17,320 bases of DNA from an uncultured archaeon (GTDB taxonomy: Archaea > Asgardarchaeota > Heimdallarchaeia > Heimdallarchaeales > Heimdallarchaeaceae). Position 1 is the first letter of the stretch. Each line of letters begins with the position of its first letter. Location of the stretch: assembly GCA_964549075.1 (NCBI GenBank), contig CAZJUB010000055.1, forward strand, positions 1 through 17,320. The letters run 5' to 3'. This document shows, piece by piece, positions 1-16,217 of this stretch. A program made the position numbers and the translations under genes. The notes beneath the pieces are model-generated. The model was not told the DNA's origin. It saw only the letters and a program-made list of their open reading frames with translations, and did not search any database.

Positions 1-95
1 TTAATTATATATTTTAGGCATCCAAAGATACTCAAAATTAATTTTCATTCAAAATTTAACTAAGGTAATTTCTCGATTCTATTTTTCTGAATAAT

Positions 96-608
96 TTATT
101 TAGATTCTTCTATTGAAATATCTGATTTAGCAGTAACTAACTCTTTAGACATTAAATCTGATATTTGAATTGTACCATTTTCTTCGAATAAAATATCTCG
201 AGTGGTAAGAATTCCTACCAAAGTATTATTATTTTCAGTTACCAGAATACCTGAAATTCCTTTTTCATCCATCATTCTTTTAGCATCAGCTAAAGTATTT
301 GTTGGAGATAACGTATAAGGATGGTCAATTCTGATCATTTCAGAGCGTTTAACCTTATTTACTTCTGAAACTTGATCTTCTACAGACATAAAACGATGAA
401 TAATTCCTATAGCTCCTAGTTGAGCCATAACTATACTCATTTTACTCTCACAAACTGTATCCATGTTTGAAGCAACAATCGGAATATTAAGAGAAATATT
501 TCTTGACAATTTTGATGCTGTATTTACATCTTGTCTTGAAGAAACAGAAGATCTTTTAGGAACAAGAAGTACGTCGTCAAATGTTAACCCTAGACGCATA
601 AAACTCAA
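96..608 (-). CDS. guaB: IMP dehydrogenase / GMP reductase family, N-terminal part with CBS subdomain; truncated by a premature stop (pseudogene or sequence error)
   Basis: GLTFDDVLLVP, LNIPIVASNMDTV and GIIHRFMS are IMPDH/GMPR N-terminal motifs, followed by CBS repeats. Homology continues in frame past TAA 96-98 (IIQKNRIEKLP). The catalytic domain is absent. Start is TTG 608 or ATG 599. Confidence 0.85.
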   Translation of the reverse strand: MSFMRLGLTFDDVLLVPKRSSVSSRQDVNTASKLSRNISLNIPIVASNMDTVCESKMSIVMAQLGAIGIIHRFMSVEDQVSEVNKVKRSEMIRIDHPYTLSPTNTLADAKRMMDEKGISGILVTENNNTLVGILTTRDILFEENGTIQISDLMSKELVTAKSDISIEESK

Positions 609-630
609 TCCAATGAGAGAAAGAATCTGG

Positions 631-638
631 ATTTAAAA
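631..638 (-). promoter_or_regulatory. Putative archaeal TATA box (TTTTAAAT) for guaB
   Basis: 22 nt upstream of TTG 608, a spacing repeated at several genes in the window. Confidence 0.45.
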
Positions 639-716
639 GGATTGTTTACCTAGTCTGGAAAATTGAAATAAAATGCAACTCCTTTTTAAATTGCTTTACT
701 TCTGTTTATATGCATA

Positions 717-724
717 TTTATATA
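717..724 (+). promoter_or_regulatory. Putative archaeal TATA box (TTTATATA)
   Basis: Consensus-like box 31 nt upstream of ATG 756. Confidence 0.5.
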
Positions 725-755
725 AGACTGTATATACAAACAAAACCAGATTAAT

Positions 756-1643
756 ATGAATCAAGGCATAAATATTCAATTATTTGAAAGATCCAAACAT
801 AATATTTCAGATAGTGCAAACAAACTGAAGAATTACATCATTTTTCAACTTGTGCTTGGAATAATTCTAGCTATTATTCTAGGAGTAACTCTTTTCGTTG
901 CTTTGGGGTTTACAACAGCTGAATTGGAGAATTTAAATCAAAATAACATGTATCAGTTTGGTCAAGATCTTATTAATAGGGGTTTATTTTCTACAGCAGT
1001 TGTAGCAGCAGTATTTCTAATTCTTGTAGGAGTAGCTTTCATAATTGTAAGTATTTTGTTATTTGTGCAATACATTAGGTTAGGATCTTCTTTCAATAAA
1101 TTATATGAATCTGAAAGAATGGTAGGAGCATCTAAAAATATTAGTTATGGATTTTATGGTTATGTAGTTGCAGTAATCATAGGATTCTTTGCTCCAGGTA
1201 TTGGAGGATCAATTGTATCAATTGCTGGGAATACCTCTCTAGCTATTGCAGCTTACTTTATCTACCAATTATTTATAGAATATAGGGATCTAGGAAGATT
1301 TAGAGGAAAACCATCAAACCTACTATTCATTGGTCTAGCTTTACAAATAATATCATCAATAGTGTCATTTTTCACATTGTACGGTGGGTTGGTAGGACTA
1401 ATAGGTTTTATCATGATGTTGATGGGATTCAGAGATTTAAGTAGAGACATGAAACTTGTTGCATCTCCAGGAAGACAAGTAGCTCAAAAACAAGCACCAC
1501 AAGCAGCTGTTTATACACCTACTCAACCTGCAAAAGCACCAGCTCAAGCAACAGCTGATACAAAAATAAAGTATTGTGAGAACTGTGGTGCAAAACTGAT
1601 AGCTAACGCTAAGTTTTGTTCTAGCTGTGGCGCTAATGTGTGA
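756..1643 (+). CDS. Multi-pass membrane protein with C-terminal zinc-ribbon domain (DUF973/DUF996-like architecture)
   Basis: About 6 hydrophobic segments, a Q/A/P-rich linker, then CENC-x10-CSSC at the C-terminus. Confidence 0.8.
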   Translation: MNQGINIQLFERSKHNISDSANKLKNYIIFQLVLGIILAIILGVTLFVALGFTTAELENLNQNNMYQFGQDLINRGLFSTAVVAAVFLILVGVAFIIVSILLFVQYIRLGSSFNKLYESERMVGASKNISYGFYGYVVAVIIGFFAPGIGGSIVSIAGNTSLAIAAYFIYQLFIEYRDLGRFRGKPSNLLFIGLALQIISSIVSFFTLYGGLVGLIGFIMMLMGFRDLSRDMKLVASPGRQVAQKQAPQAAVYTPTQPAKAPAQATADTKIKYCENCGAKLIANAKFCSSCGANV

Positions 1644-1715
1644 TTTTTCTGTTTTATCTCGTGAAATACTGTGTTTCACGAGTACATTTTTAATCTTTTA
1701 AAATTTTTAGAAATT

Positions 1716-2627
1716 ATGACTATCCGATTCGTTACTGATTCTACTTCCGATTTATCTTGGGATTATGCGAAAAAAAACAAGGTGGAGATTGTTTCTTTAT
1801 ATATCATGATTCATGGCGAAAGTCATTTAGAAGATGAAAATTTCGACAAAGAAAGTTATTACAAATTATTTGAAGAAGAACATGCTTTTCTCCATATTCC
1901 TCAACTCAAACTTTATTCTTTTGTTCCTCAAACCTCCCAACCTAATCCTGGAGATTTTATTGAAGCTTATCAAAAACAAGTCGATGATGGAGCTACAGAA
2001 ATAATTGTAGTTAATGTTACAGAAGGTCTGAGTGGAACAATAAATAGTTCTTCTCTTGCTGCTAAACAGTTCTTAAGAAACAATCAAGAGGTAAAAATTC
2101 ACATAGTTGATGCTAAATCTGCATCTTATCCAGAAGTGTTTCTAATTAGAATGGGTTTAAATCTTGTTAAGAAAGGATATGAAGCTGAGAAAATAGCAGA
2201 AGTACTTCGAGAACAAGCTCTCAAAATTAAAACAATTATTTTGCTCCCAACCTTGCGTTATTTATGGAAAGGGGGAAGATTAAGGATTTACAAATATGCT
2301 TTAGGCTCACTTTTGAGAAAGAAACCTATCGTGACCATGAATTCAGAAGGATATGTTGAAACCGCAGGATCTGCTACCACTGTAGAAGAAGGTTTGAATG
2401 AATCTTTAAGATTGAATACAGAAAACTTTGCCAAAAATCCTAGATCTTTCACAATAGTTTATGGAAGTAGGAAAGATTATGCAGAGAGAATGGCAGAAAT
2501 TATACTTGAAAGATATCCAAAAATGGAAATAGAAATAGCTCAAAGTGGTGGATCAGTTTTATCTCATCTTGGCCCAGAATCGATAGGAGTAATTGGAGAT
2601 TATACTGACGACGAATATTGGAAATAA
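1716..2627 (+). CDS. DegV / FakB family fatty-acid-binding protein
   Basis: IRFVTDSTSDL, TSQPNPGDF, LSGTINS, YLWKGGR, KPIVT and SHLGP motifs. ATG 1716 is preferred over GTG 1671 because DegV proteins begin at MxIxxxTDS. Confidence 0.93.
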   Translation: MTIRFVTDSTSDLSWDYAKKNKVEIVSLYIMIHGESHLEDENFDKESYYKLFEEEHAFLHIPQLKLYSFVPQTSQPNPGDFIEAYQKQVDDGATEIIVVNVTEGLSGTINSSSLAAKQFLRNNQEVKIHIVDAKSASYPEVFLIRMGLNLVKKGYEAEKIAEVLREQALKIKTIILLPTLRYLWKGGRLRIYKYALGSLLRKKPIVTMNSEGYVETAGSATTVEEGLNESLRLNTENFAKNPRSFTIVYGSRKDYAERMAEIILERYPKMEIEIAQSGGSVLSHLGPESIGVIGDYTDDEYWK

Positions 2628-2634
2628 CATTCTT

Positions 2635-3687
2635 CTAACTTCTATTCCTTTTTATTGACTTTAGGTACATGGAAAATCCAACCAACAAAAGTGCAAAGAT
2701 TACAATTACTCCACCAAAAGCTAAAGTTGTTGGTATTGTAGTTGACGAAAATGAGGTGCTAAAAGTACAATCTCCATCTTTGTTTAACGGATACATATCG
2801 AGAGATCCAGCTGCACCATCAAGAGCATAATAGCAACTGAATCCTAAATCTGACCACAAATTTCCAACTAAACCAATTTCATCGTACCAGATATTTTCTC
2901 CGCTATCATAAGCTTGAGAATTATAAGGTAATGAGTTATTAATAAATGAATTTAGATAAATCTCAATATCATTTGTATTAGAGGTTAAATAAACAGCATA
3001 GGCATAGTTTTCGATAAATAAATTTTGCAAGATCAAACTAGCCTGAACAGTATTGAACTTTATTCCAGTTTGGAGATTTTTGTATATCATATTATCAGTT
3101 ATAGCAATCCATATGCAATCATAAAATTCGAACCCACACTGATTATTTTTTGTACAATTGTTATAAGAAACTGTTAACAAATCTGAATTAAAAGCATATA
3201 ATCCTTTGATATTACCTTTCAACATATTTCCACTAATATTCATTTTAGAACAATGGTTAAGATACAATCCAAAGATATTATCTTCACACGTGTTATTTAA
3301 AACAGAACAATCTATTGGAGAATCTTGAAGATATATAGCATAAGTTGTAGAAACAAAATCTAGATTGATATAACAATTTTGTATAATATATTTTTTATCT
3401 ACACAGCAAATTTTGATTCCATACTCAGCAGTAGCAACAATACTATAATTGGCAATTATGTAAGGTTGTTCAGTTGTACCATTTCCCTCAAATCCATAGC
3501 TTATGAAATCATCATTTGAGTTAATTATGATAGGTTCATGAGTGATATACTCTTTAAAATAAGGAATAGGTTGAGATGAAGTTTCTTTTAAAGATGTTTG
3601 AGAGGAGTTTACTTTATTTTGATTTAAAAAAATCAAGAACATTAGAAAACTAACTAATAAAGTTCTACTGAAACCTTTCATATTCAT
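2635..3687 (-). CDS. Secreted parallel beta-helix (NosD/CASH-like) surface protein with C-terminal membrane anchor
   Basis: Signal peptide, HEPIIINSNDDF..GNGT..PYII cap, ~22-aa NN..GIxL beta-helix repeats, GNLWSD..D.YPL end motif, S/T linker, TM helix and basic tail. Confidence 0.88.
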   Translation of the reverse strand: MNMKGFSRTLLVSFLMFLIFLNQNKVNSSQTSLKETSSQPIPYFKEYITHEPIIINSNDDFISYGFEGNGTTEQPYIIANYSIVATAEYGIKICCVDKKYIIQNCYINLDFVSTTYAIYLQDSPIDCSVLNNTCEDNIFGLYLNHCSKMNISGNMLKGNIKGLYAFNSDLLTVSYNNCTKNNQCGFEFYDCIWIAITDNMIYKNLQTGIKFNTVQASLILQNLFIENYAYAVYLTSNTNDIEIYLNSFINNSLPYNSQAYDSGENIWYDEIGLVGNLWSDLGFSCYYALDGAAGSLDMYPLNKDGDCTFSTSFSSTTIPTTLAFGGVIVIFALLLVGFSMYLKSIKRNRS

Positions 3688-3712
3688 TACACAAAAAAAT
3701 AGAGAATATCTG

Positions 3713-3720
3713 ATATAAAA
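3713..3720 (-). promoter_or_regulatory. Putative TATA box (TTTTATAT) for the beta-helix gene, overlapping the T-tract after the upstream gene
   Basis: 25 nt upstream of ATG 3687. Confidence 0.45.
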
Positions 3721-3738
3721 AAATATAGGGGTAGGTTA

Positions 3739-4743
3739 TTATTTTCTTCTTGTTTTAATTAGAAGAGCTAAACTGACCATGAAACCTAAACCCAGTATGC
3801 TAAATAGATAATCATACTGAAGTGTTAGCGTATTTCCACCATCAGTGTTATCAGAATCTCCAAAATAAATTTTATCTACAGAGAACTGATAGAAAGGATG
3901 TCCTGTCTTATTGTATTGTATAAAACCTGCTATCATTCCAGTCTTTGCTTCATAAAAGAAATCACTCTCATACATAATGTAGTAACGAGTTGAATAATCA
4001 TCAATATAAATTGGTGGGCTTTCAGTATAATCTATATGAACTTTGATAATATTATAAGCTTGGTCACCTATTTCTTGTGAAATAATTCCAACTACTTCAC
4101 CTGTGAACCAACTATAATCTATAATTTCTTCTACTGCAGCTTCTGGACTGATAGCATATTGTTCTTTACTAGGAAGATAGACTTCTGAAAGCCATTGTTC
4201 TCGAATAGTAGTTTGAAGAGCTAAATCTAGCTCTGTTAAAGCTGACATACTTACAAAAACATTCCAAAGAACTTCTCTTCCATCCTCAAGCTTTACAACC
4301 ATATTACTAAGATTAGAAATATCTTGAAATGTTTCTTCACTCATTAAACTTGCTTGAACTACTACTGACCCATTAGTAATTTTAAGATAAGAAAGAGGAA
4401 CAGCTTTTGAGCGATTATGGTACCATACAAGATAACTATATTCATAAATAATACCTGTAGCAACTGTATCACTAGGAGGGGAAAATATAACAGTAATTTT
4501 CATTCCTATCTCAATTATTTTTTTAGATACATCAGGGAATTGGTGAAATTTTACTACTTTGTAAATAGTATCATATTCAAAATAAGAAAAAGACGCAAAA
4601 TTTCCTAAATCCATAACAGTGGTACCTTCAGTATAAGAACCTGGAATTAATGCAAGCTGATCAGATGCAAAGTCAGAGATAGCTTGTGTTGAACCAATAA
4701 ATAAAAATATCAAAAAGAACCCCACAAATACTTTCTTGAACAT
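3739..4743 (-). CDS. Hypothetical secreted protein with C-terminal TM anchor
   Basis: Signal peptide from ATG 4743 (MFKKVFVGFFLIFLF; ORF open to 4764), acidic/aromatic beta-rich body with a YEAKTG motif, C-terminal TM + KTRRK. Confidence 0.75.
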   Translation of the reverse strand: MFKKVFVGFFLIFLFIGSTQAISDFASDQLALIPGSYTEGTTVMDLGNFASFSYFEYDTIYKVVKFHQFPDVSKKIIEIGMKITVIFSPPSDTVATGIIYEYSYLVWYHNRSKAVPLSYLKITNGSVVVQASLMSEETFQDISNLSNMVVKLEDGREVLWNVFVSMSALTELDLALQTTIREQWLSEVYLPSKEQYAISPEAAVEEIIDYSWFTGEVVGIISQEIGDQAYNIIKVHIDYTESPPIYIDDYSTRYYIMYESDFFYEAKTGMIAGFIQYNKTGHPFYQFSVDKIYFGDSDNTDGGNTLTLQYDYLFSILGLGFMVSLALLIKTRRK

Positions 4744-4835
4744 AGAATCACATCTTCTATACATATTAGTACACTTAAAGATTTAAATAATTTTGCAAGA
4801 AAAAAAATACAAACATGATCCAAACAGCTTTACAC

Positions 4836-5426
4836 TTAAGTTTGCTTAACAGATGTATTTTCAATACTCTCCAGAATGTGTTTTACTTGCATTCCTAATA
4901 ATTCTATGTGTTCCAGTTCGTGTTCTCTTTGATAATGATGGAAATAATCACTCCCATAATACATAATTAAAAATCCACTAAGAAGTCCAACTAGTACAAA
5001 TCCCACAATTGAGATTGGATTTCCATTTGGGATGAAACTTAGAAGTATAGATCCACTTAAAATAGTGCTGTAATATATCCACCAATATCTCATAAAAGAG
5101 AACCAGATAGGTTTTCGAGACTTGTTTCTTTGTCTTGCTTCTAATATTTCTAATATAATTTTATCTAAGTCTAATAATATTTTACGAGAGATTTCTACTA
5201 TCACTAAATCACCGATTCTATCTTGTTTAAATGCAAGTTTTACTATCCAATAAAACAGATTTTTCGATAAATATAGAGAATAGTATTCTAGTGATTCTTC
5301 CTCTGCCTTCTTAACTTTATAATCGAGCTCTGTTATTTTTGTCTCTAAAATTGAGATTATAGTCAATAGATCTTTATCTCTAAAACGAACTTCAAAGCTC
5401 TCAGTAGTCATTAATTGATAAGACAT
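4836..5426 (-). CDS. Hypothetical membrane protein (helical N-terminus, two TM helices)
   Basis: 196-aa ORF filling the intergenic space, with two hydrophobic segments separated by PNGNP. Confidence 0.7.
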   Translation of the reverse strand: MSYQLMTTESFEVRFRDKDLLTIISILETKITELDYKVKKAEEESLEYYSLYLSKNLFYWIVKLAFKQDRIGDLVIVEISRKILLDLDKIILEILEARQRNKSRKPIWFSFMRYWWIYYSTILSGSILLSFIPNGNPISIVGFVLVGLLSGFLIMYYGSDYFHHYQREHELEHIELLGMQVKHILESIENTSVKQT

Positions 5427-5513
5427 TACAGTATATTTGAATGTTCCAAAACTAATAATTAAATTGTAAAAAATTAGACTTAATTTACCATTTTTTCTAG
5501 TTTTAATTTACTT

Positions 5514-5552
5514 AAAAAAGGAAAGTATAATGAAATAAAAGTAAAGGGAGAG
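5514..5552 (-). terminator. Oligo-T/pyrimidine-rich archaeal-type terminator region after tdh
   Basis: T-rich tract ending TTTCCTTTTTT on the minus strand directly after the stop codon. Confidence 0.45.
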
Positions 5553-6509
5553 TTATTTGTAAGGTATTACAAGTTTCTTACTTACTCCTTCCAACATCTC
5601 AATTACCATTTTGTCAAATGGAAATTCAGGTTTCCAACCCCATTCTTTTCTAGCTGCACTATCATCTAAGCTATGTGGCCATGAACGTGCAATTCCATCT
5701 CGAAAATCAGGTTTGTAAGTAATCTCAAAATCAGGTATATAGTCTTTAATAGCATCAGCTAATTGTTCTGGAGTAAAACTCATACTTGTAACATTGTAAA
5801 CACGATGTTGTAGTTTATCATCAGGAGCTTCAATTAGATCAAAAGTTGATTTCAAACAATCAGACATCATCATCATTGGAAGTTCAACATCAGGTCCTAA
5901 GAAACATTCGTATTTTTTATTCTTAATTGCTTCATAAAAAATCCATATAGCATAATCTGTTGTACCACCGCCTGGTTCCTCAGGACTCAACACTCCCGGA
6001 TATCTTAAACTTCTGAAATTCAATCCATACTTCTTGTTATAATAATTCCCCATCAGTTCTATATAGACTTTCGAAACACCATAAATACTAGTTGGTTCCA
6101 TTATTGTTATATTAGGTGTATTATCTAATGGTGTTGTTGGACCAAAAGCTGCTATAGATGAAGGAGAAAAAAGCTGCTCTAGATTCAATTCTCTTGTAGC
6201 TTCTAAGACGTTATAAAAACCTTCAAAATTGATCGAATGTGCTAATTGAGGATTCCTTTCACCTGTTGCAGAAAGAACAGAGGCGTTGTGAATGACAATA
6301 TCGATATCATATTCAACTAATAACCTTCTTAAACCATATTCATCTCGTGCATCCAATCTATTATAAATTACATCTAATTCCTTGAAAGCTTCAGGAATCT
6401 TTTTTCTTCCAGTTGCTATTACATTTTCCTTCCCATAACGTTTTAACATTGCAGGAACAAGATCCATTCCGATTTGCCCATACGAGCCAGTTACAAGATA
6501 TTTCTTCAT
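5553..6509 (-). CDS. tdh: L-threonine 3-dehydrogenase (extended SDR, NAD-dependent epimerase/dehydratase fold)
   Basis: LVTGSYGQIG, LSATGE, SSIAAFGP, YGVSK (YxxxK), PGGGTTDYA and IARSWP motifs characteristic of SDR-type TDH. Confidence 0.92.
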   Translation of the reverse strand: MKKYLVTGSYGQIGMDLVPAMLKRYGKENVIATGRKKIPEAFKELDVIYNRLDARDEYGLRRLLVEYDIDIVIHNASVLSATGERNPQLAHSINFEGFYNVLEATRELNLEQLFSPSSIAAFGPTTPLDNTPNITIMEPTSIYGVSKVYIELMGNYYNKKYGLNFRSLRYPGVLSPEEPGGGTTDYAIWIFYEAIKNKKYECFLGPDVELPMMMMSDCLKSTFDLIEAPDDKLQHRVYNVTSMSFTPEQLADAIKDYIPDFEITYKPDFRDGIARSWPHSLDDSAARKEWGWKPEFPFDKMVIEMLEGVSKKLVIPYK

Positions 6510-6530
6510 GGAACAAAGAGAAAAAGAGGA

Positions 6531-6538
6531 TTTTAAAA
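6531..6538 (-). promoter_or_regulatory. Putative TATA box (TTTTAAAA) for tdh
   Basis: 21 nt upstream of ATG 6509, with no SD, consistent with a leaderless mRNA. Confidence 0.45.
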
Positions 6539-6568
6539 ATTTATTGCAATGTAAAAGAGAAAATATTT

Positions 6569-6595
6569 AAAAAAATAAAGGAAAAGAAAAAGAGG
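6569..6595 (-). terminator. Oligo-T terminator after the large surface-protein gene
   Basis: Near-continuous pyrimidine tract with T runs of 4-7 nt directly after TAA 6597. Confidence 0.55.
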
Positions 6596-6596
6596 A

Positions 6597-9344
6597 TTAT
6601 TGGTTAATCTTCTTCTTTCTTCTCAAAGTTAATAATACAGCTGCTGAGAGAGCTCCAAGGATTGGTAATAAGGATAGAGCAGTAAATTCAGGAACTACAA
6701 TAGGTTTCTCAATTTTCCACCAACAGTTTGCGATTTTTTCAACACCAGTTGTGACATCTGTTACAATAAAGTATACGTCATACCAGCCTTCGTTATAGAA
6801 GATCCAATAGACATAGAAGCTATACGTAGTCATTGCTAAGACAAGTTTCGTCTCGTTATGAGCAATCCAAGAATCACTTCCATGAACAATTTTCACAACT
6901 AAATTGAGAGTCTTATCTATAGGATAGAGATTACCTACTCCAAATTGCATAGTATAGTTCTGTTCGACTTCTCCATAATAACTTTGTTCAATCCAAATAT
7001 CAAACCAACCATCTTCATGGACAAACCAGCGACATTCAGAAGTCCAAACTAAACCAGTTTGAAGTTCTACAACAATTAAGTAGATTTTGTATATTCCAGG
7101 ATTCGTGAAAGTGTAGGAGAGATTCAACATCAAAAGTTGATATGCTAACAATACCAAGGAGTTCGTATAAATCGCTACTACTCCGTAACCCGTATCGATT
7201 CGAACTTCAATGTATAATGGAACATCGTAGGAATAGAAACTCTGGATATAAAATTGCATCCAAACAGTTTCGGAAACAACTGCTTCATAGTCTTGAACAA
7301 TCCAGACTTCTATGTAACCAGTTAATATTCGCCAGTGACAGAATTCAGACCAATGAGCACCAGTATTGTTATCAATCACTTCGAGTTCAACCGTATATGG
7401 TCCTGCTACTAGGAAAGCATAGAGAACCGTGAAATTATAGAGACCATTAGCAGGTATAAGAACAGAAGTTGTAAAGACCAATATTGGTGAAACTCCATCA
7501 TCTATCCAGACATTAATGGTTACATCCATTGTAATAGCGTAATAGTTGAAAACATAGAACTCCATTAGTACTTCTTCTCCAACTTGAGCTGTGAAATCTT
7601 GAATTATCCAGAGATCAAAGTATTCTGCATAAATTTCCCACCAGCAAGTCTCAATCCATACTATCTGAGTTGCTACTTCCGTTACTACAAAGATTATATC
7701 ATAATAACCAGCCATATCGAAAACATGTGTTAAATCTAGAATCCAGAAATCGAAAGGATTGATTAGTTCTACATAACTATAAAGTTCAACATATTCTGTT
7801 CCATCATAAACAAGAATTTGTATTACAACTTCTTTCTCCATAGCGTAGTAGTTGTATAGTTCGAATCTCATCCAAAGTTCTTCACCTACCAATCCGTAAT
7901 AGTCTTGATAGATGTATAGATCAATATATCCACCATAGACGTACCACCAACAGTAATCAACGAATATTTCATCAGAAAATATATCTATAACTACTAGTTT
8001 TACATCCCAATAGTCAGGATACAAGAACGTCCAATAAACCGTGAAATTATATAACTCTCCAGGAGCAATGACATAGGTTTCTCCGTAGATGAGAATTTCA
8101 TCAGTTCCATTGTTGATCCAAACTGAAATATCTATGTCTCTATCAACAGCATAGTTACTCAATATCCAGCAATACATTATTGCTTCTTCGCCAACAAACA
8201 CTTCGTATTGCTGATAAATCCAGACATCAAGAAATCCGCCATATACAATCCATCCTTGAGGGCAATATTCAGTCCATGTAATATCAAAGTCAAGAACATA
8301 GACTTCTACATACAAATCCCAGTAACCTTCAGCTAAGAACGTAAAGAATACTTCATCCATGAAATAGGTACCTGCTAAAATAAGTACTCCATCACGAGTA
8401 TAGATCAAGATAGTATCAGTACCATTATCAATGTACACATCAATATGTGCAGTTATATCAATAGCATAATAATTATACACCCAAAATTGTATTCTTTCTT
8501 CAACGCCAACAACAGCTTCGTAGTTTTGTTCAATAAGTATGTCAATAAAGCCATCGTAAACTTCCCAATAGCAGTAGTCATAATAGTCTTTGTCTATCAT
8601 TATATCAAGAATATGCAAGGTAACATCATAATATCCAGCTACTATAAACGTCCATGGAACAACTACTACAAAAATATCATACGCAAGTATCAAAACAGTA
8701 TCCTCATAAATCTGGACAGCTCCAGAACCATCATCTAATAAAATCTCAAAGTAATAATATTTGTCTATAGCATACCCATTCTGGATGAAAACCGTCATAT
8801 TGACTTCTAAACCAACTTGTGCTTCAAAGTCTTGGTAAATAGTATACTCTATCCAACCATCATAAACATACCATTGACACTCTGTAGTATATTCCATCCC
8901 TTGAGCTACATCCATGACTTTCAGGTTGACTAGATGATACCCAATTAGAGTGAAGGAGTAAGTTACGGTAAAAACATATTCGATGTAAGGATGGAGTAAT
9001 TTTGTTTCAGTATAGATTAAAAATACACTTCCATTACTATATTGAATCCAGACTTCAATGTCAACTGTAATATCAATAGCAAAAAGATTTAGTATATGAC
9101 ATTCCATATACGCCGTCTCATAGATAGCGACCTCATAGTCTTGTTCTATCCACACATCTATCGTGTTTTCTGTTTGATCTAATCCCAATTCATCTTGAAC
9201 TGGATTGCTTTCTACTTCTTGTAATTCAGTATCTGTAGGTCGATTCGAATACAATGCTTGAGCGGCTTGATTTGAACCCCCTATCACAGCAAGCGTAAAA
9301 AGTAGAATAAAAAAACTTGTTTCAATTAATTTTCGCTTATTCAT
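6597..9344 (-). CDS. Large cell-surface glycoprotein with 8 tandem ~102-aa Ig-like (CARDB-like) repeats and a PEF-CTERM-type sorting signal
   Basis: Signal peptide from ATG 9344 (MNKRK.., ORF open to GTG 9356). Repeats follow IxQxYxxxVGE..N.YAID..DDG..GYYDV..CxW. Many NxS/T sequons. C-terminus is VVPEF + TM + RRKKK. Confidence 0.88.
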   Translation of the reverse strand: MNKRKLIETSFFILLFTLAVIGGSNQAAQALYSNRPTDTELQEVESNPVQDELGLDQTENTIDVWIEQDYEVAIYETAYMECHILNLFAIDITVDIEVWIQYSNGSVFLIYTETKLLHPYIEYVFTVTYSFTLIGYHLVNLKVMDVAQGMEYTTECQWYVYDGWIEYTIYQDFEAQVGLEVNMTVFIQNGYAIDKYYYFEILLDDGSGAVQIYEDTVLILAYDIFVVVVPWTFIVAGYYDVTLHILDIMIDKDYYDYCYWEVYDGFIDILIEQNYEAVVGVEERIQFWVYNYYAIDITAHIDVYIDNGTDTILIYTRDGVLILAGTYFMDEVFFTFLAEGYWDLYVEVYVLDFDITWTEYCPQGWIVYGGFLDVWIYQQYEVFVGEEAIMYCWILSNYAVDRDIDISVWINNGTDEILIYGETYVIAPGELYNFTVYWTFLYPDYWDVKLVVIDIFSDEIFVDYCWWYVYGGYIDLYIYQDYYGLVGEELWMRFELYNYYAMEKEVVIQILVYDGTEYVELYSYVELINPFDFWILDLTHVFDMAGYYDIIFVVTEVATQIVWIETCWWEIYAEYFDLWIIQDFTAQVGEEVLMEFYVFNYYAITMDVTINVWIDDGVSPILVFTTSVLIPANGLYNFTVLYAFLVAGPYTVELEVIDNNTGAHWSEFCHWRILTGYIEVWIVQDYEAVVSETVWMQFYIQSFYSYDVPLYIEVRIDTGYGVVAIYTNSLVLLAYQLLMLNLSYTFTNPGIYKIYLIVVELQTGLVWTSECRWFVHEDGWFDIWIEQSYYGEVEQNYTMQFGVGNLYPIDKTLNLVVKIVHGSDSWIAHNETKLVLAMTTYSFYVYWIFYNEGWYDVYFIVTDVTTGVEKIANCWWKIEKPIVVPEFTALSLLPILGALSAAVLLTLRRKKKINQ
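6708..9161 (-). repeat. Eight diverged intragenic protein repeats, ~306 nt period
   Basis: Manual alignment of aa 66-883 of the ORF gives 8 units, each starting [IFL][DE]xxIxQ and ending CxW (CPQGW in unit 3). Confidence 0.9.
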
Positions 9345-9668
9345 AGTTATACACACCCGAACTGTGAGTACAAAATACTAGTTGTGATTATGGTATTTAT
9401 CTTTTTCTTGCACTTGATAACTTTTGAAATCTCCCGACATTAATCCTTTCAGTTTTAAAGCTGCAAATATCATGTTTTGAGCTTATTTATAGTTCTCAAA
9501 ATCATGTAAAGCAAAATTGAGTCCAGAGGAAGTCTAAAAACTCAAACATTTATAAATACTAATAAGCTTAAAGGCGTTTATTCAAAAAGACTATAGAAAG
9601 TATTAAAAGAGATTTTTTTATAGTATTTGTATAAGCATCTATCAACCACATGAAGATGGGAGTTCAGA

Positions 9669-10619
9669 TTGAGTACTGCAAAAACATCAAAAATTCTGGA
9701 GTTCAATAAAAAAGGGATACCTCTTGTTGTAATAGGTTTACCACAGGCAGGAAAATCTTCATTTGTACAACGAATCAAAACTGGGGAGTTTCAAAATACT
9801 AGAACTACCATGGGTATGAAATTCGAAAGTGCAAATATTGGTGATGCTCGATTTGATATTTTCGACTTAGGAGGACATGAAACATATAGAAAAACAATAT
9901 GGCAAACTTACACAAAACTTGCTTACAGTATAGTTTTTCTTGTAGATTCAGCTGATCCTGAAAGTTTTGATCTTGCCAAACAAGAGTTCTGGAAAAGTAT
10001 TGATTTGAAAGGAGAACAAGATGAGTTTATTATCTTGATACTATGTAACAAATCAGATTTGGAGAAAAGTGTTAATCTGGAAACCATCATCAACCAACTT
10101 GAATTGTATAAATTAGCTGACAAAGAAAATGCTTCTTTTCATTTCTTTAAAACCAGCATGAAAACAGGTGAAAACCTAGATCCTGCACTTATGTGGTTGT
10201 CTAAAAATACTTCGAGAATTGTCCAGAAACGCAATGTTGACCCTCAAATGTTTATGCTGGCTGATTTAGAAGGTTTTCCCATTTTAGAAATAGACAAAAT
10301 GAACCTGGAAGAAGAACCTTCTTTAATGGCGGGTTTTCTTTCAGCAATTGAGAGTTTCAGTAAACAATTATTTGGCAAAACAGGAATTCTGCAATTTATG
10401 CAATCTGGTGAATATAAGTACATCGTAAAAACAGATGACAAATACATTTACTCTTTGATCATAAAGATTGAGGAGTGTCAAGAAGAAGCAAGAAGACTCA
10501 TAGATATTGTTAGTGAACAAGTGTATGATTTAGAGAATTTTGCAATTTTGGAAGGAATAATAACACAATTACTCAATATCGACCCTTCTAACTATGTGTT
10601 AAGAAAAGGTTTTACATGA
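9669..10619 (+). CDS. Arf/Sar1-like small GTPase fused to a C-terminal longin/roadblock-like domain
   Basis: G1 GLPQAGKSS, G2 TTMG, G3 DLGGH, G4 NKSD, G5 TSMKTG. From ~aa 192, FMLADLEG..LMAGFLSAIESFSKQLFG followed by three short beta strands. TTG start with GGGAG upstream. Confidence 0.92.
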   Translation: MSTAKTSKILEFNKKGIPLVVIGLPQAGKSSFVQRIKTGEFQNTRTTMGMKFESANIGDARFDIFDLGGHETYRKTIWQTYTKLAYSIVFLVDSADPESFDLAKQEFWKSIDLKGEQDEFIILILCNKSDLEKSVNLETIINQLELYKLADKENASFHFFKTSMKTGENLDPALMWLSKNTSRIVQKRNVDPQMFMLADLEGFPILEIDKMNLEEEPSLMAGFLSAIESFSKQLFGKTGILQFMQSGEYKYIVKTDDKYIYSLIIKIEECQEEARRLIDIVSEQVYDLENFAILEGIITQLLNIDPSNYVLRKGFT

Positions 10620-10670
10620 AGTTCTAAGAAAAGAATTAAAAATTCTTGAGTTACTTCATCCTTGAGAACT

Positions 10671-12041
10671 ATGGTAAAGGAATTCTTCTATCCAAAAACC
10701 ATTGCTATTATAGGTGCTACAGCTGATCCCAAAAAATTTGGTAATGCAGTAACAGTCAATTTGCTTGAGAATGAACAACTAGAAAGTGAACTATTTCCCA
10801 TTAATCCCAAATCTACAGAAATATTAGGTTTGAAATCTTATTCTTCCATTTTAGAAGTTGAAAAAGATGTTGACTTAGCAATCATTTTAGTCCCTTCTAA
10901 AGCAGTCCCTATCATTGTTGACCAATGTATTGAGAAGAAAGTAAAACGAATTATTATTGTTTCTGCAGGTTTTGGTGAAATTAATAAAGAAGGGAAGAGG
11001 ATCGAGCAAGAAATGGCTCGAAAAGCTCGTGAGAAAGGTATTAGATGCATTGGTCCTAATTGTGTTGGAATCATGAATGTTGATACTGGTATGAATGCCT
11101 CTTTTATTTTAACTCCTCCTAAAGGTAATGTAAGTATGGTCACACAATCAGGCAGTTTTGGAGCTGCTTGCCTTTATGAAATGAAAGATCAAGGTTTAGG
11201 ATTTTCGAAATTTGCTAATCTTGGTAACATGTCAGATGTTAACTTAACTGACTTATTACGATTCTACCTTGAAGATAATAATACAAAAGTAGTTTGTATT
11301 TATCTTGAGAATGTCATTGATGGGAGGAAATTCTATGACACATTATGTGATCTAGCTAAAATTAAACCAACCATCATTCTTAAAGGAGGAAGAACTGCTT
11401 ATGGAACTACTGCAGCTGCTAGTCATACAGGTTCAATTGCAACTAATTATAGTTCTCTTAAAGCAGCAATTAAACAATCAGGAGCTACTTTATGTGAAAG
11501 TCTTAATGATTATGTTGCTGCAATCAAAGCTTTCTCTTTTCTTCCATTGCCAGAAGGGAATAGAGTGGGAATCTTAACTAATAGTGGTGGAAGTGCGGTT
11601 CTTTTTAGTGACAACGCTGATGAATTTGGGATGAAATTAGCAGAATTTTCGGAGGAATTTAAAGCAAAAATCACACCACATATTATTCCTTTAGTTAAAA
11701 AAGTGAACCCTCTTGACTTGATAGCAGGAGCTAATGGTGAAACATATTATCAGGTTACAAAAACTATGCTTGAAGACCCAAATATAGACATTGTTGTTAC
11801 TTGTGCTGTTATACCAACTTTTCTAGAAATGACTTTAGATGAACACTATTCAGGAGTGGTACGAGCTTGGAATGATACAGGTAGGAAAAAACCTATTATA
11901 CCTATTTTCATGAGTGGAGAACTAGTCATTAAATCAAAGAAAATAGCCGAAAAGGAATTAGTTCCTCTATTCCTATCGCCTAGACAAGCAGCATTTGCTG
12001 TAAAAGCTCTAATAGAAAGAAAGCAGAAACTTCAGAAATAA
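10671..12041 (+). CDS. acdA: Acetate/acyl-CoA ligase (ADP-forming), alpha subunit
   Basis: PKTIAIIGA CoA-binding domain, SAGFGE, IGPNCVG, QSGSFG, LKGGRT..AASHTGS (phospho-His) and NPLDL motifs. No ATP-grasp beta subunit is fused or adjacent. ATG 10671 preferred (TTG 10662 possible). Confidence 0.93.
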   Translation: MVKEFFYPKTIAIIGATADPKKFGNAVTVNLLENEQLESELFPINPKSTEILGLKSYSSILEVEKDVDLAIILVPSKAVPIIVDQCIEKKVKRIIIVSAGFGEINKEGKRIEQEMARKAREKGIRCIGPNCVGIMNVDTGMNASFILTPPKGNVSMVTQSGSFGAACLYEMKDQGLGFSKFANLGNMSDVNLTDLLRFYLEDNNTKVVCIYLENVIDGRKFYDTLCDLAKIKPTIILKGGRTAYGTTAAASHTGSIATNYSSLKAAIKQSGATLCESLNDYVAAIKAFSFLPLPEGNRVGILTNSGGSAVLFSDNADEFGMKLAEFSEEFKAKITPHIIPLVKKVNPLDLIAGANGETYYQVTKTMLEDPNIDIVVTCAVIPTFLEMTLDEHYSGVVRAWNDTGRKKPIIPIFMSGELVIKSKKIAEKELVPLFLSPRQAAFAVKALIERKQKLQK

Positions 12042-12322
12042 AACTGAAGAATCATCTCTTTCACTTTCTCTACATCCTCAGTATATTTAGGATTAAGTTC
12101 CTTTCTACGTTTCATAAAAGTGTCTAAATCTTCTTCTTCTTTTATATATCCTCTCTCCAAAAGCTTCAATGTAGATAGTAATAGGGTAATACTCACTTTG
12201 TCTTCTAAACATTTATGAATTAAAGGTATGGAACGTTCAAAGACTTTGTTGTTATGTATTTTGTCGGAAGCTTCCATCAAGAAATTCAAAGAGATTATCT
12301 TATTTAAAGATGTGTCAGACAC
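12032..12322 (-). CDS. Small hypothetical soluble helical protein
   Basis: 96-aa ORF with GTG start and protein-like composition, overlapping the acdA 3' end convergently by 10 nt. Confidence 0.6.
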   Translation of the reverse strand: MSDTSLNKIISLNFLMEASDKIHNNKVFERSIPLIHKCLEDKVSITLLLSTLKLLERGYIKEEEDLDTFMKRRKELNPKYTEDVEKVKEMILQFYF

Positions 12323-12367
12323 AATTAATACCAGTTTTACCGTGAAAAATCAAGAATAAAACAGTTT

Positions 12368-12619
12368 TCAACTTGTTTGTAAACTTGAATCGTGTATAGA
12401 TCTTTTTTCGTAAATCTTGTATCCTAGAATGTAGAATACTGCAAAAGAGAAGCATAGAAGTATCAGAATTATTCCCCAAACAAATGCAGGAAAGGACTGT
12501 TCTCTAAGTGATTCAATATATCTAAATAAGAAAATTAAACCTATAGCCAAAATTCCACTAAGAAAGGTAGCAATAGTAGACAGAATAAAAACTGTTGTTT
12601 TAGGATTCCTCTTTTTCAT
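12368..12619 (-). CDS. Small two-TM membrane protein (copy 3 of tandem trio)
   Basis: Basic N-terminus, two hydrophobic helices, 20-nt overlap with the upstream gene. Confidence 0.7.
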   Translation of the reverse strand: MKKRNPKTTVFILSTIATFLSGILAIGLIFLFRYIESLREQSFPAFVWGIILILLCFSFAVFYILGYKIYEKRSIHDSSLQTS

Positions 12620-12938
12620 CTTCTAAAAGATCCTGTTCAATTTTTTTATCAATGGGATGAAGTTCTTCTTCACCTATACTTTCAACTCTCCCTTCAAATT
12701 CAAGAACTTTACCCAAAGGTGTTGATATGATCTTTGGTTGTCTATAAGCTCGTATACTTCTGAAACCTATTATAATTATGATTAAATCAATAATAATAAT
12801 TACAACCCAAAAAGCTGTATCATGTGTAAAAGCTGCTAAAATCAATAAACCTATCACCAGCAATGTGATAAAGATTATAAGAGCAGGAATAAACGCTTTA
12901 TGATACTTGGGTTTAACCTTAATCATCATTCTAATCAC
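12600..12938 (-). CDS. Small two-TM membrane protein with acidic tail (copy 2 of tandem trio)
   Basis: Two hydrophobic helices, E/D-rich C-terminus, overlaps both neighbours; several possible start Mets. Confidence 0.72.
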   Translation of the reverse strand: MIRMMIKVKPKYHKAFIPALIIFITLLVIGLLILAAFTHDTAFWVVIIIIDLIIIIIGFRSIRAYRQPKIISTPLGKVLEFEGRVESIGEEELHPIDKKIEQDLLEDEKEES

Positions 12939-13266
12939 TTTTTTGAAGAGACGAAGATGAATTCAGAGCTATTTCTTCTTTCTCAGATTTTTCTTTATCA
13001 GACTTTTCCTTGTGCATTAATAAAGATATCAGTTTAAAGCTTATATAAAAAAGGATAACAAAAAATAACCAACCAAAAAGAACCCACACAGAAATAATAC
13101 CTAAATCATCCCATCGATTCAAAGAAATTGTAAGAAGTGAATATACCAAGAAAGAACCAGTTAAAAACACGGTAATAATCAGAAAAATCTTACCAGTAAG
13201 AGATTGTTTTCTGTACCTAAAAACATCTAGCCATGATTTATCTGTATTCTTCTTGTCGGAGTTCAT
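12931..13266 (-). CDS. Small two-TM membrane protein with charged tail (copy 1 of tandem trio)
   Basis: Two hydrophobic helices, KEKSDKEKSEKE tail, TTATAAT box ~27 nt upstream. Confidence 0.72.
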   Translation of the reverse strand: MNSDKKNTDKSWLDVFRYRKQSLTGKIFLIITVFLTGSFLVYSLLTISLNRWDDLGIISVWVLFGWLFFVILFYISFKLISLLMHKEKSDKEKSEKEEIALNSSSSLQKSD

Positions 13267-13320
13267 TTAGATAGAATGATGATAACGAGGATGATTATAA
13301 GTTTTGTTTGTTTTGAGGAT

Positions 13321-13335
13321 AAAGGAAAAAAAAGG
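13321..13335 (-). terminator. Oligo-T terminator after the longin-DENN gene
   Basis: CCTTTTTTTTCCTTT on the minus strand 11 nt after the stop. Confidence 0.5.
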
Positions 13336-13346
13336 TTGAACAAAGT

Positions 13347-14357
13347 TCAGCCTTGAAGTTTTTCTAGAAGCTCTAGTAAAATCATCTGTTTTTCTAAAGG
13401 TAAAGATTCTTTGGAATGAGTTTTTATTGAAAGCGATTCTAAAGATTGGAAGATCCAGTCTAACTCTGTTCGAATAAAACTGTAAGCTTCCATAGCACTC
13501 AAATCTGTAAGTTGTTTAGCTATTTTCTCGAAATAAGATGAAGATCTTCCTCCATAAACAATGCCATCATCAAGGTTGACAATAATTAAGTTCACTGAGG
13601 GGATTAGTCCTTTGTAATCATTGGTTCCAACAATATCAAAGCCTTTTTCATACTTGAAAGACCAGGACTTGACCTTGAGTAGTTTGGTTGGAGAGAGAAA
13701 ACGTAAAGATTGAATCATAGATTCAACTATATTTCGATTACCTGAGATAATTACAGGAACACCTACAACCAGTCCGTAAATAATCTTATCAATTCCTTCA
13801 GGAATTAATCTTGTAATAATATCAAAAGAAAGAAAATCACGGGAATTATCTAACATACTATCTTTAGCTACGTTTTTCAGTTTAATCAACGATTCATAAT
13901 CTGTCAAATCAGTTTTTTCGAAAATATGGATCATATTAGTTTGGATGTTTGATAAATATTCAGCGAGACAAGATTTAATGCGTGTACCTATTTCTTCTTC
14001 GTAGCGAATAGCTTCATAGGCATGGAAAGTATATTGAAGTTGTAATTGCTTGAATTCAGCGAGTAAAAGTGGGAGAATATTACCATTGAACGGGGATTCA
14101 ATATCTACCAAAAGAGAGATGACAAGGTCATTTTCATTGTAAAAATACAGAATCTTGCCTTCATATTCTATTTCTCGAGGAAATGAACAGACAACTTCTG
14201 AGGAAAGTGCAATAATAGCACTAATCAAGCCTGTCACTAACGCATTATCAATTATAACAGCCTCAGATGAGGAGTCATACTGATAAAGTAATTCTCCATT
14301 CTTGGATGTGATAAGTATCTTCACTTCTTTCACTCTTTGTACTAATTCAGTGAGCAA
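13347..14357 (-). CDS. Longin (uDENN)-like + folliculin/DENN-like protein
   Basis: N-terminal ILITSKNGELLY..LVTGLISAIIALSSEV longin-like pattern. C-terminal IIYGLVVGVPVIISG..VESMIQSLRFLSP..SWSFKYE..DIVG..IIVNLDDG resembles the cDENN core. Start TTG 14357 (GTG 14333 possible). Confidence 0.75.
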   Translation of the reverse strand: MLTELVQRVKEVKILITSKNGELLYQYDSSSEAVIIDNALVTGLISAIIALSSEVVCSFPREIEYEGKILYFYNENDLVISLLVDIESPFNGNILPLLLAEFKQLQLQYTFHAYEAIRYEEEIGTRIKSCLAEYLSNIQTNMIHIFEKTDLTDYESLIKLKNVAKDSMLDNSRDFLSFDIITRLIPEGIDKIIYGLVVGVPVIISGNRNIVESMIQSLRFLSPTKLLKVKSWSFKYEKGFDIVGTNDYKGLIPSVNLIIVNLDDGIVYGGRSSSYFEKIAKQLTDLSAMEAYSFIRTELDWIFQSLESLSIKTHSKESLPLEKQMILLELLEKLQG

Positions 14358-14470
14358 CCTCTAACACACCATGTAGTACACAAAGGATATGTCTGCCTTT
14401 TTAATCTAGATAGTACGTAGATATTAACCCCGTTAAACATACATAGTCAAATAAATCTTATAAGCTCTAT

Positions 14471-14504
14471 GAAAGAGGAAAAGAGAAAAGAAGAGAAAAA
14501 AAGA
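14471..14504 (-). terminator. 34-nt pure pyrimidine tract (minus strand), probable terminator of the zinc-ribbon gene
   Basis: + strand 14471-14504 is all A/G, 50 nt downstream of the stop at 14555. Confidence 0.45.
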
Positions 14505-14554
14505 CATAAAACAGCATTAGAAAAGCTGGAAATGTTGTATTTTCGTATTTAAGT

Positions 14555-14914
14555 CTACATCATCCAGAAAACAGAAAAGAAAATAATGACCACTAAAGCA
14601 GGAATTCCAAAGAAAGCTAGAATCAGCAAAACTTTGACCCAATTAGGCACTCCACCAGGTTTTCTAGGAGGATAACCATAGGGTTGACCTGGTACTGCAT
14701 CATACGATCCTGAAATACTTCTCCCTTGCTGAGGATGTTGAGTTTGATAAGGTTGGTAAGGCTGGTAACCTTGTTGTTGTACATCTGTTTGTTGTGGTTG
14801 GGATTGATACTGTTGACTACCTGAAGGTTCTCCCAAACTCTGACCACAATTCTCGCAGAAACGATTGTTAGACTTGTTTTGAGCACCACAGAATTGGCAG
14901 AAAACATAACTCAT
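14555..14914 (-). CDS. Zinc-ribbon protein with Q/P/Y/G-rich linker and C-terminal tail anchor
   Basis: CQFC-x10-CENC, low-complexity QQYQSQPQQ..GYQPYQPYQ, terminal hydrophobic helix; TTTAAATA box ~29 nt upstream. Confidence 0.85.
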   Translation of the reverse strand: MSYVFCQFCGAQNKSNNRFCENCGQSLGEPSGSQQYQSQPQQTDVQQQGYQPYQPYQTQHPQQGRSISGSYDAVPGQPYGYPPRKPGGVPNWVKVLLILAFFGIPALVVIIFFSVFWMM

Positions 14915-15125
14915 TTTTCTCTAAAATCTATTTAATATCCAGCTATTTAAAAGCATTCTTTTAGTTTTTGAGTACTACAATTGAAAATATGTAATAGATA
15001 CAGTATAAAACTGTGAATCAAAAACAGGAATATATAATTCCAAATGTTTATTTTTTCTCTTTTTATTCATTTCGAAACTTAATTAAAGCTATTCTAATGT
15101 TTCATCCTAACCTTAAGTGATTTGA

Positions 15126-16211
15126 ATGAATTGGTTCATTATTACGACAAATAGATGCAATCTCTATTGTAAATATTGTCAAAATGAACCACACCCAAAT
15201 CTTCCAGTTAGACCAAGTTGGAAAATTGAACAATTAAAAGATTTCTTAGCTAAAGATGACTCTCCTAATATTTGCTTCTATGGTGGTGAACCTTTACTTT
15301 TTATGGATAAGATTCAAGAAGTTATGAACAATATTTCAGCTGTTCATTATACGCTCCAAACCAATGGATTATTGCTATACAAACTTCCAACTGAATATCT
15401 AAATCGTTTTACTTCTATCTTAATATCTTTAGATGGAGATGAGCGAATTACGGATTATAGTAGAGGGAAGGGAACATATCAATCAGTTGTTCAGAATATC
15501 AAAGATATAAGATCCAGAGGATTTCAAGGAGATTTAATCGCTAGAATGGCTGTTCATGAACAATCAGATATCTATAGAGATGTATTTTATCTATTAAATT
15601 CAGAGGAACTTACATTTGATCATGTTCATTGGCAACTAGATGTTGAGTGGGATGACAGTATAGACACTAGATGGGTAGATTTCGAACAATGGTCCAAAGA
15701 TTATAACCTTGGAATAACAAAATTAGTTAATTACTGGCTGGAAGAGATGAAAAAAGGAAGAGTAAGAGGGATAGTTCCGTTTTTAGGTACTTTTAAACAC
15801 ATCCTAAATGATACAACAACCGATTTACCTTGCGAAGCAGGATTACGAAGCTTTGCAATTAGAACAGATGGAAAAATAACAATCTGTCCTCTCCCTCCAG
15901 AATATGAATTTACAGTAGTTGGAGATTTAGAAGATTCTACTCCTCAATCAGTTGAAAATTCCTTACAAGTAGGAGAATATTGTAAAGAATGTGATGTCTA
16001 TGGACTGTGTGGAGGAAGATGTTTGTTTGCTGAAAAAAGCAGACTCTGGGGAGAAGAAGGATTTGAAAAAGTTTGTAATTTAGTCAAGCATTTTATCCAA
16101 AAACTAAAAGAGATAAAACCTGAAGTACAGAATTTAATTGAGAAAAAGATACTAAAAAGAACAGATTTTGATTATCCTCTTTACAACAACACAACCGAGA
16201 TTATTCCGTAA
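15126..16211 (+). CDS. Radical SAM/SPASM domain protein, probably the AF0577 (TIGR04084) putative peptide-modifying family
   Basis: CNLYCKYC, YGGEPLL, LQTNG, SLDG, HVHWQLD, SPASM C..C..CKEC...CGGRC and terminal EIIP. Confidence 0.88.
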   Translation: MNWFIITTNRCNLYCKYCQNEPHPNLPVRPSWKIEQLKDFLAKDDSPNICFYGGEPLLFMDKIQEVMNNISAVHYTLQTNGLLLYKLPTEYLNRFTSILISLDGDERITDYSRGKGTYQSVVQNIKDIRSRGFQGDLIARMAVHEQSDIYRDVFYLLNSEELTFDHVHWQLDVEWDDSIDTRWVDFEQWSKDYNLGITKLVNYWLEEMKKGRVRGIVPFLGTFKHILNDTTTDLPCEAGLRSFAIRTDGKITICPLPPEYEFTVVGDLEDSTPQSVENSLQVGEYCKECDVYGLCGGRCLFAEKSRLWGEEGFEKVCNLVKHFIQKLKEIKPEVQNLIEKKILKRTDFDYPLYNNTTEIIP

Positions 16212-16217
16212 ATTTGT

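Follow-up and report, generated by a model that had tools for sequence, protein, structure and literature searches.

A stretch of 17,320 nucleotides from an uncultured archaeon of the Heimdallarchaeaceae (GCA_964549075.1, contig CAZJUB010000055.1, positions 1 to 17,320; hereafter the window) carries on its minus strand the gene of a protein built around eight diverged Ig-like repeats, each with a Gln at the end of its first strand and a Cys within its last. The conservation of this Gln-Cys pair exceeds chance. In its most likely version the pair would act as a non-covalent clamp between the first and last strands of each domain, a reading held here with somewhat less than even confidence. The autocatalytic Cys-Gln thioester that had been proposed for the pair in a first-pass annotation of the window is, on the evidence at hand, less likely than this clamp. 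Judged from its sequence, the product is a membrane-anchored cell-surface stalk protein of this Heimdallarchaeial archaeon.

The Gln-Cys pair in the window and across the family

The repeats follow one another in tandem over residues 62-883 (window positions 6708-9173, minus strand), and each is 102-104 amino acids long; residues are counted throughout from the translation of a 919-residue open reading frame that opens at GTG 9356. Pairwise identity among the eight ranges from 25.5 to 40.8% with a mean of 31.6%, and only four columns, occupied by I, Q, F, and C, are invariant. Every repeat carries the Gln in an I-x-Q motif and the Cys in a C-x-W motif, with a spacing of 87-88 residues from Gln to Cys and of 15-17 residues from that Cys to the Gln of the following repeat (Table 1). 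The triplets around the two residues, which the first-pass annotation had listed as kept in all eight repeats, match that list exactly. Its statement that six of the eight repeats lack a second Cys also holds, the exceptions being repeats 1 and 4, whose additional Cys residues (positions 86 and 396) share column 24 of the repeat alignment, in strand B.

Repeats pooled from the collected proteins and loci of the family gave 355 distinct full repeats (353 distinct aligned rows), in which the Gln occupies column 10 and the Cys column 97. Both residues are present in 340 of the 355. Ten repeats keep the Gln and lose the Cys (replaced by S in four, N in three, and D, Y, and T in one each), three keep the Cys and lose the Gln (H in two, M in one), and two lose both, reading T/S and H/S at the Gln and Cys positions; the terminal repeat of one relative, which is only partly aligned, reads S/A. 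With weighted conservation values of 0.98 and 0.95, Gln and Cys are the two best-kept columns of the alignment, ahead of the core positions F72 (0.94), G76 (0.94), I8 (0.86), and Y78 (0.80). Cys is otherwise scarce: 343 of the 355 repeats have it at column 97 and 45 at column 24, whereas every further column has it in three repeats at most, and exactly one Cys falls within the aligned columns of 274 repeats. The column-24 Cys is kept by all 11 aligned orthologues, and each of the 45 repeats that have it also has both the Gln and the column-97 Cys.

The 12 replacements of the column-97 Cys are all polar (S in six, N in three, and T, D, and Y in one each), with no Ala, Val, or Leu among them. 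Covariation of the two residues in homologues, which had been put forward as a check on the thioester, gives a divided answer. Joint loss is enriched, with two cases where independence would give 0.17 (odds ratio 22.7; the Fisher p of 0.0099 overstates significance because the rows are related), yet 13 of the 15 exceptional repeats have lost a single partner. A relative from a sister genus offers a natural test of tolerance, as its pairs are degraded in three of six full repeats (M/C, H/C, and T/S).

Fold of the repeat and register of its terminal strands

The repeat is predicted to fold as an Ig-like sandwich. An AlphaFold2 model of repeat 6, computed from a 93-row repeat alignment, has eight strands with a predicted local distance difference test score (pLDDT) of 94.8, and in a full-length model based on 11 orthologues (mean pLDDT 75.6, repeats mostly 70-90) the same eight-strand pattern recurs eight times. 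In the single-repeat model the Gln is residue 13, within a gap of three residues that separates strand A (7-12) from A' (16-18), and the Cys, residue 100, falls halfway along strand G (95-105). In the full-length model the Gln directly follows strand A in seven of the eight repeats and ends that strand in the remaining one, and the Cys lies within strand G in all eight. The earlier assignment of the Gln to the first strand and of the Cys to the last thus agrees with the models, which place the Gln at the A-to-A' break.

The assignment to the Ig-like sandwiches is further borne out by structural comparison. The top match in Foldseek and VIA-align is the CARDB chain 3idu_A of PF1109 (TM 0.79; Z 13.2, root-mean-square deviation 2.2, 100 residues), followed by RbmA, FnIII, the macroglobulin (MG) domains of C3, C4, and A2M, transglutaminase barrels, and an archaeal PKD domain (Z 11.3). 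Among the matches listed by either program there is no chain of the CnaB, ester-bond, or TED type, although a listing of this kind does not exclude them. Look-alikes in the ESM Atlas, which serve as leads only, score up to 0.92; the leading clusters are unnamed, and CARDB clusters reach 0.90 and 0.89. A profile search of the PDB returned weak matches only, to the F-G strands of the ColH PKD domain (E at least 0.004), and this weak alignment sets the C and W of the repeat against core residues of ColH.

Although CARDB, an archaeal surface-protein domain represented by PF1109 of Pyrococcus furiosus (PDB 3IDU and 2KL6), is the best fold match, its sequence identity to the repeat is 14-18%, and the repeat has no match to the Pfam CARDB family (PF07705) at E 0.01. 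We know of no Gln-Cys pair in CARDB. The repeat also resembles the MG domains of C3, C4, and A2M (Z 12.0-12.6), domains that are not known to carry the thioester of these proteins. With PKD domains (PF00801, PF18911) the repeat has in common the F-strand motif F-x-x-x-G-x-Y-x-V-x-L-x-V-x-D, and the repeat profile matches PKD-rich proteins over the F-G region only (positions ~67-90). Two homologues score 38.7 and 24.8 bits against PF00801, for which the cut-off is 23.5, with no single stretch passing alone, and the protein of the window has no match. The repeat differs from PKD in being ~17 residues longer and in its I-x-Q and C-x-W motifs, which fall outside the PKD profile alignment. Searches of the whole protein against Pfam (threshold E 0.01) and NCBIfam assigned it to no family, and a literature search found no work on these repeats. 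The repeats are an uncatalogued, lineage-restricted, CARDB/PKD-like family.

Direct-coupling analysis (353 rows, effective number 232, 4851 column pairs) was carried out by mean-field and pseudo-likelihood methods, and in both the top parallel diagonal has an offset of 87, joining columns 8-16 to strand G. Column pair 13-98 ranks 2nd by the mean-field and 1st by the pseudo-likelihood method, 14-101 ranks 10th and 5th, 12-98 ranks 17th and 8th, and Q10-C97 itself ranks 5th and 31st. The Q10-C97 coupling depends on few variant rows, and it is the freely varying neighbouring pairs that carry the register. Together these couplings support a register in which Q10 would lie alongside C97, Y12 alongside W99, and A14 alongside V101, in keeping with the parallel pairing of Q-x-Y-x-A with C-x-W-x-V that the first-pass annotation had predicted. 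Hydrophobic alternation along columns 4, 6, 8, 10, 12, 14, and 16 and along columns 97, 99, and 101 indicates that both the Gln and the Cys face the core, where W99, F72, and I8 form the pocket around them. From co-evolution and topology combined, the two residues are probably in contact. A separate set of coupled pairs (8-93, 5-96, and 3-99, summing to ~101) would suggest an antiparallel-like pairing of strands A and G; the model does not account for it, and it may be noise.

A proposed non-covalent clamp and its competitors

In the preferred reading, the Gln would face the core at the crossover of the first strand from sheet 1 (as A, with B) to sheet 2 (as A', parallel to G), and the Cys, core-facing on strand G, would adjoin it. 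The pair would thereby clamp the two terminal strands of each domain at the site through which a pulling force passes into and out of it. The buried amide of the Gln may hold the A/A' kink in place, much as the buried Gln or Glu at position 6 of antibody variable domains would, with the Cys as a small, hydrophobic, hydrogen-bond-capable neighbour that would satisfy the amide. The antibody residue, at the first-strand kink, was reportedly given a structural role by Honegger and Pluckthun in 2001; the buried Gln at the kink is alike in the two cases, its conservation in the antibody domains would be a matter of structure rather than of chemistry, and no partner Cys on strand G is known to be involved there. 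We infer the clamping role, and to call the clamp non-covalent is a judgement rather than a result.

Several observations fit such a clamp. The Gln is retained in 10 of the 12 repeats that lack the Cys and is therefore needed without it, and the restriction of Cys replacements to polar residues is what would be expected of a side chain hydrogen-bonded to a buried amide. Furthermore, no column of the 355-repeat alignment holds a conserved His, a conserved Lys, or an invariant acid: His reaches at most 0.16 and Lys at most 0.21 in any column, and the best acidic (D/E) columns reach 0.68-0.82. Weighing against a non-covalent clamp, the Cys is conserved like a core residue, being present in nearly all of these repeats at ~25-40% identity. 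A hydrogen-bond partner should accept Ser, Thr, or Asn, whereas the Cys barely varies, which points to thiol-specific chemistry. Joint loss of the two residues also stands above independence, with the caveat on related rows given above. Finally, the pair lies ~10 residues from the start of the domain and ~5 from its end, and the isopeptide and ester cross-links of stalk proteins sit at much the same domain-end positions.

The closest parallel among cross-linked stalks is found in the Thr-Gln ester-bond Ig domains of Gram-positive adhesins, namely Cpe0147 from Clostridium perfringens and the Mobiluncus mulieris adhesin. These too are tandem Ig-like domains of surface stalks whose terminal strands carry, close to either end of the domain, a Gln on one and a nucleophilic residue on the other, so that the bonds form a spine (PMC10619420; PMC12679949). 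The order is reversed, as the known domains have Thr or Ser on the first strand and Gln or Glu on the last, whereas in these repeats the Gln comes first and the candidate nucleophile is on strand G. The repeats differ further in that the candidate nucleophile is Cys rather than Thr or Ser, in their archaeal host, and in the absence of a conserved His or buried acid. Ester-bond formation is described as depending on His as the base and on an acid that is buried, protonated, and part of the oxyanion site, and a Thr-to-Cys mutant of an ester-bond domain as giving mainly non-crosslinked and disulfide-linked species (PMC12679949). The last-strand ester-bond motif HxDxxDxxQ (PMC10619420) occurs in 0 of 38 family proteins.

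Thioester-bearing proteins offer a second comparison. TEDs and C3/alpha-2-macroglobulin also have a conserved Cys and Gln in a hydrophobic setting, and these pairs form the thioester spontaneously (PMC10619420; PMC13685950). In contrast to the TED, a single N-terminal adhesive domain, the repeat is a 102-residue all-beta sandwich present eight times. The M. mulieris adhesin has its thioester in an N-terminal TED and not in the Ig-like repeats (PMC10619420). Neither the TED motif TQxx-aromatic-W nor the complement motif CGEQ occurs in any of the 38 family proteins, and there is no Pfam TED match. The Lys, Asn/Asp, and Glu/Asp triad of CnaA and CnaB isopeptide domains was likewise sought and not found; no column exceeds 0.21 for Lys, and the 18 Lys residues in 919 amino acids include none at a repeated position.

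The thioester remains an unlikely but substantial competitor. It would be a covalent staple in which the Cys thiol attacks the neighbouring Gln amide, NH3 leaves, and a buried Cys-Gln thioester joins the first and last strands; with eight such links 15-17 residues apart, a near-continuous covalent spine would run along the stalk, much as in the isopeptide and Thr-Gln ester stalks of Gram-positive adhesins, though with another chemistry and with the nucleophile on the last strand. In a possible reactive variant, the thioester would serve as a warhead for amines on a partner surface. Much of the evidence on the pair could be read in this way, since Gln and Cys are the two best-kept columns, Cys is nearly confined to column 97 in otherwise diverged repeats, joint loss is enriched, and the two residues are directly coupled in a side-by-side register and face a common aromatic pocket. 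Five of the ten repeats with Gln and no Cys hold Ser or Thr, which could still make an ester. As the DUF11 isopeptide family also includes repeats that lack the bond residues (PMC12617251), exceptions alone do not refute a cross-link. The single losses in 13 of 15 exceptions nevertheless count against the thioester, as N, D, and Y replacements cannot cross-link, and so do the absence of a conserved base or acid column and of all three motifs (HxDxxDxxQ, TQxx[FWY]W, and CGEQ) from a regular-expression search of the 38 family proteins. Authors in the field consider a thioester unlikely to stabilise a protein, and the T450C variant of Cpe0147 cross-links poorly (PMC10619420; PMC12679949). The literature search found no Cys-Gln thioester for Ig-like stalk domains, its coverage ending short of the supplementary tables of PMC12617251 and PMC12679949, which might list Cys/Gln sites. 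A new post-translational chemistry proposed from conservation alone starts from a low prior.

Two further explanations would dissolve the pair into unrelated residues. A disulfide or redox role, in which the strand-G Cys bonds with the strand-B Cys (repeats 1 and 4) or with other molecules, or carries a sulfur adduct or a metal while the Gln is kept for structural reasons of its own, seems quite improbable. In its favour, the column-24 Cys, which could act as a disulfide or thiol-exchange partner of the strand-G Cys, is kept in all 11 orthologues and always occurs with Gln and C97, and column 24, in core strand B, is coupled to strands F and G (24-93 ranks 7 and 11 in the two analyses, and 24-82 ranks high). 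However, columns 24 and 97 are not directly coupled to each other (ranks 4331 and 3605 of 4851), the 274 single-Cys repeats have no intradomain partner, a core-facing Cys in mid-strand is poorly suited to intermolecular bonds, and no His or second metal ligand is conserved. Least probable of all is that the Gln, steadying the strand-A kink, and the Cys, as a small core residue, are two independent structural residues whose coincidence reflects a young, lineage-restricted family. The family is indeed confined to few genera, two of which account for nearly all of the 34 positive genomes among 400 from the phylum, and single losses do dominate the exceptions, but both columns persist at 25-40% repeat identity, the Cys is never Ala or Val among the 355 full repeats, and direct coupling and the enrichment of joint loss tie the two residues together. 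A non-covalent clamp stays the preferred, if tentative, account of the pair.

The gene, its relatives and its surroundings

The window is AT-rich (GC 0.28-0.35). The mechanical open reading frame at 6597-9356 (minus strand) encodes 919 amino acids; the start was placed at ATG 9344, 4 codons inside it, because nine homologues begin there with MNKRK or MNRxx, which gives a gene at 6597-9344. The predicted parts of the protein are collected in Table 1.

Table 1. Predicted parts of the repeat protein, with window positions, residues in the 919-residue numbering, and the Gln and Cys of each repeat
Feature	Window positions	Strand	Residues	Gln (triplet; codon)	Cys (motif; codon)	Remarks
Coding sequence, predicted surface protein	6597..9344	-				915 aa; stop codon 6597-6599
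Signal peptide, predicted	9255..9344	-	5-34			Basic N-terminus, hydrophobic core, A-Q-A; cleavage site inferred by eye
Acidic linker, probably disordered	9174..9254	-	35-61			pLDDT 24-36; no secondary structure predicted
Repeat 1	8862..9173	-	62-165	Q72 (EQD; 9141-9143)	C160 (CQW; 8877-8879)	Extra Cys86, codon 9099-9101
Repeat 2	8556..8861	-	166-267	Q175 (YQD; 8832-8834)	C262 (CYW; 8571-8573)	
Repeat 3	8247..8555	-	268-370	Q277 (EQN; 8526-8528)	C365 (CPQGW; 8262-8264)	
Repeat 4	7935..8246	-	371-474	Q382 (YQQ; 8211-8213)	C469 (CWW; 7950-7952)	Extra Cys396, codon 8169-8171
Repeat 5	7629..7934	-	475-576	Q484 (YQD; 7905-7907)	C571 (CWW; 7644-7646)	
Repeat 6	7323..7628	-	577-678	Q586 (IQD; 7599-7601)	C673 (CHW; 7338-7340)	Modelled singly
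Repeat 7	7017..7322	-	679-780	Q688 (VQD; 7293-7295)	C775 (CRW; 7032-7034)	
Repeat 8	6708..7016	-	781-883	Q791 (EQS; 6984-6986)	C878 (CWW; 6723-6725)	
C-terminal anchor, predicted	6600..6707	-				P-E-F, hydrophobic helix (889-914 in the model), RRKKK tail

In the full-length model the signal peptide region is predicted as a helix (3-32) at low pLDDT. The C-terminal tail looks like an archaeosortase-type sorting signal; its match to the NCBIfam model Heimdall-CTERM (NF045529) is weak, at 16.1 bits against a cut-off of 24 (E 0.011), and the same genome encodes an exosortase/archaeosortase homologue (PF09721, 54.9 bits, above the Pfam cut-off). The protein is rich in aromatic residues (Y 10.5%, W 4.0%, F 5.2%, aromaticity 0.20) and has far more acidic than basic residues (D+E 14.3% vs. 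K+R 3.2%). The mature protein is very acidic, with a pI of 4.05, and contains 10 N-x-S/T sequons.

A word-index search retrieved 13 related proteins, 12 of them at 56-95% identity and one distant relative at 25%; two of the 12 are annotated merely as 'hypothetical protein' of Candidatus Heimdallarchaeaceae. Against 1.84 billion representatives, the eight-repeat profile matched 366 proteins at E 0.001 or below, including 24 at 1e-30 or below. Matches that span both the Gln and the Cys (profile positions 8-98) were found in 56 of 162 proteins examined, many of the others covering positions ~67-90 only, and the seven partial matches of this kind that were scanned all proved to be PKD-rich proteins. 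The 34 genomes of the phylum in which the repeat is present include the source genome of the window. The others are 15 of the 30 genomes of its own family (including 14 of the 24 of its own genus) and, in a second family, 17 of the 22 genomes of a single genus; one weak match lies elsewhere in the phylum. No paralogue of this gene was found in its own genome.

The order of an epimerase gene, the repeat gene, an Arf-like GTPase gene, and an acetyl-CoA synthetase alpha gene is kept in all 3 loci compared from the same genus and in none of the 3 from the other genus. Because the order is kept within one genus only, gene context provides no functional lead. Two other secreted proteins are encoded nearby on the minus strand, at 2635-3687 and 3739-4764, one of them a NosD/beta-helix protein and the other without a Pfam family. 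Both have a signal peptide, a C-terminal hydrophobic helix, and a basic tail like the repeat protein, and from this shared layout the stretch would encode three anchored surface proteins. An Arf-family small GTPase (E 4e-34) with a C-terminal extension of ~136 residues is encoded at 9669-10619 on the plus strand, and a 336-residue protein with a weak, sub-threshold Folliculin_C match at 13347-14357 on the minus strand; by sequence, both look like eukaryote-like Asgard signature proteins.

Short metatranscriptome contigs from two libraries of two studies match parts of 6663-9085 and of 13529-14409 (within the gene at 13347-14357), for example 6663-7003 with one mismatch and 8242-8406 with none, and DNA runs cover 29-30 of 30 bins. 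The sequencing runs were selected by the repeat gene, DNA carry-over is possible, and uncovered parts of the window in the RNA runs carry no meaning. These matches are a weak hint of transcription in salt-marsh or rhizosphere sediment.

Were the thioester to prove real, which seems unlikely, this Asgard archaeon would have a covalently stapled surface stalk in which each domain is closed on itself by an autocatalytic Cys-Gln thioester. Such a bond would be a fourth type of intramolecular cross-link in Ig-like stalk domains, beside isopeptide, ester, and disulfide bonds, and, outside the TED and macroglobulin folds, the first thioester to staple a structure or to serve as a reactive warhead in multiple copies. 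The chemistry of self-forming cross-links in surface stalks would then gain a bond type and a fold context not seen before and would reach the archaeal lineage nearest to eukaryotes, and the 102-residue repeat could become an engineering module of the tag/catcher type with a cleavable or exchangeable bond. If the pair is non-covalent, the repeats are still an uncatalogued, lineage-restricted family of Ig-like domains, and they mark a probably expressed surface protein of the Heimdallarchaeia, a class whose cell envelope is almost unknown.

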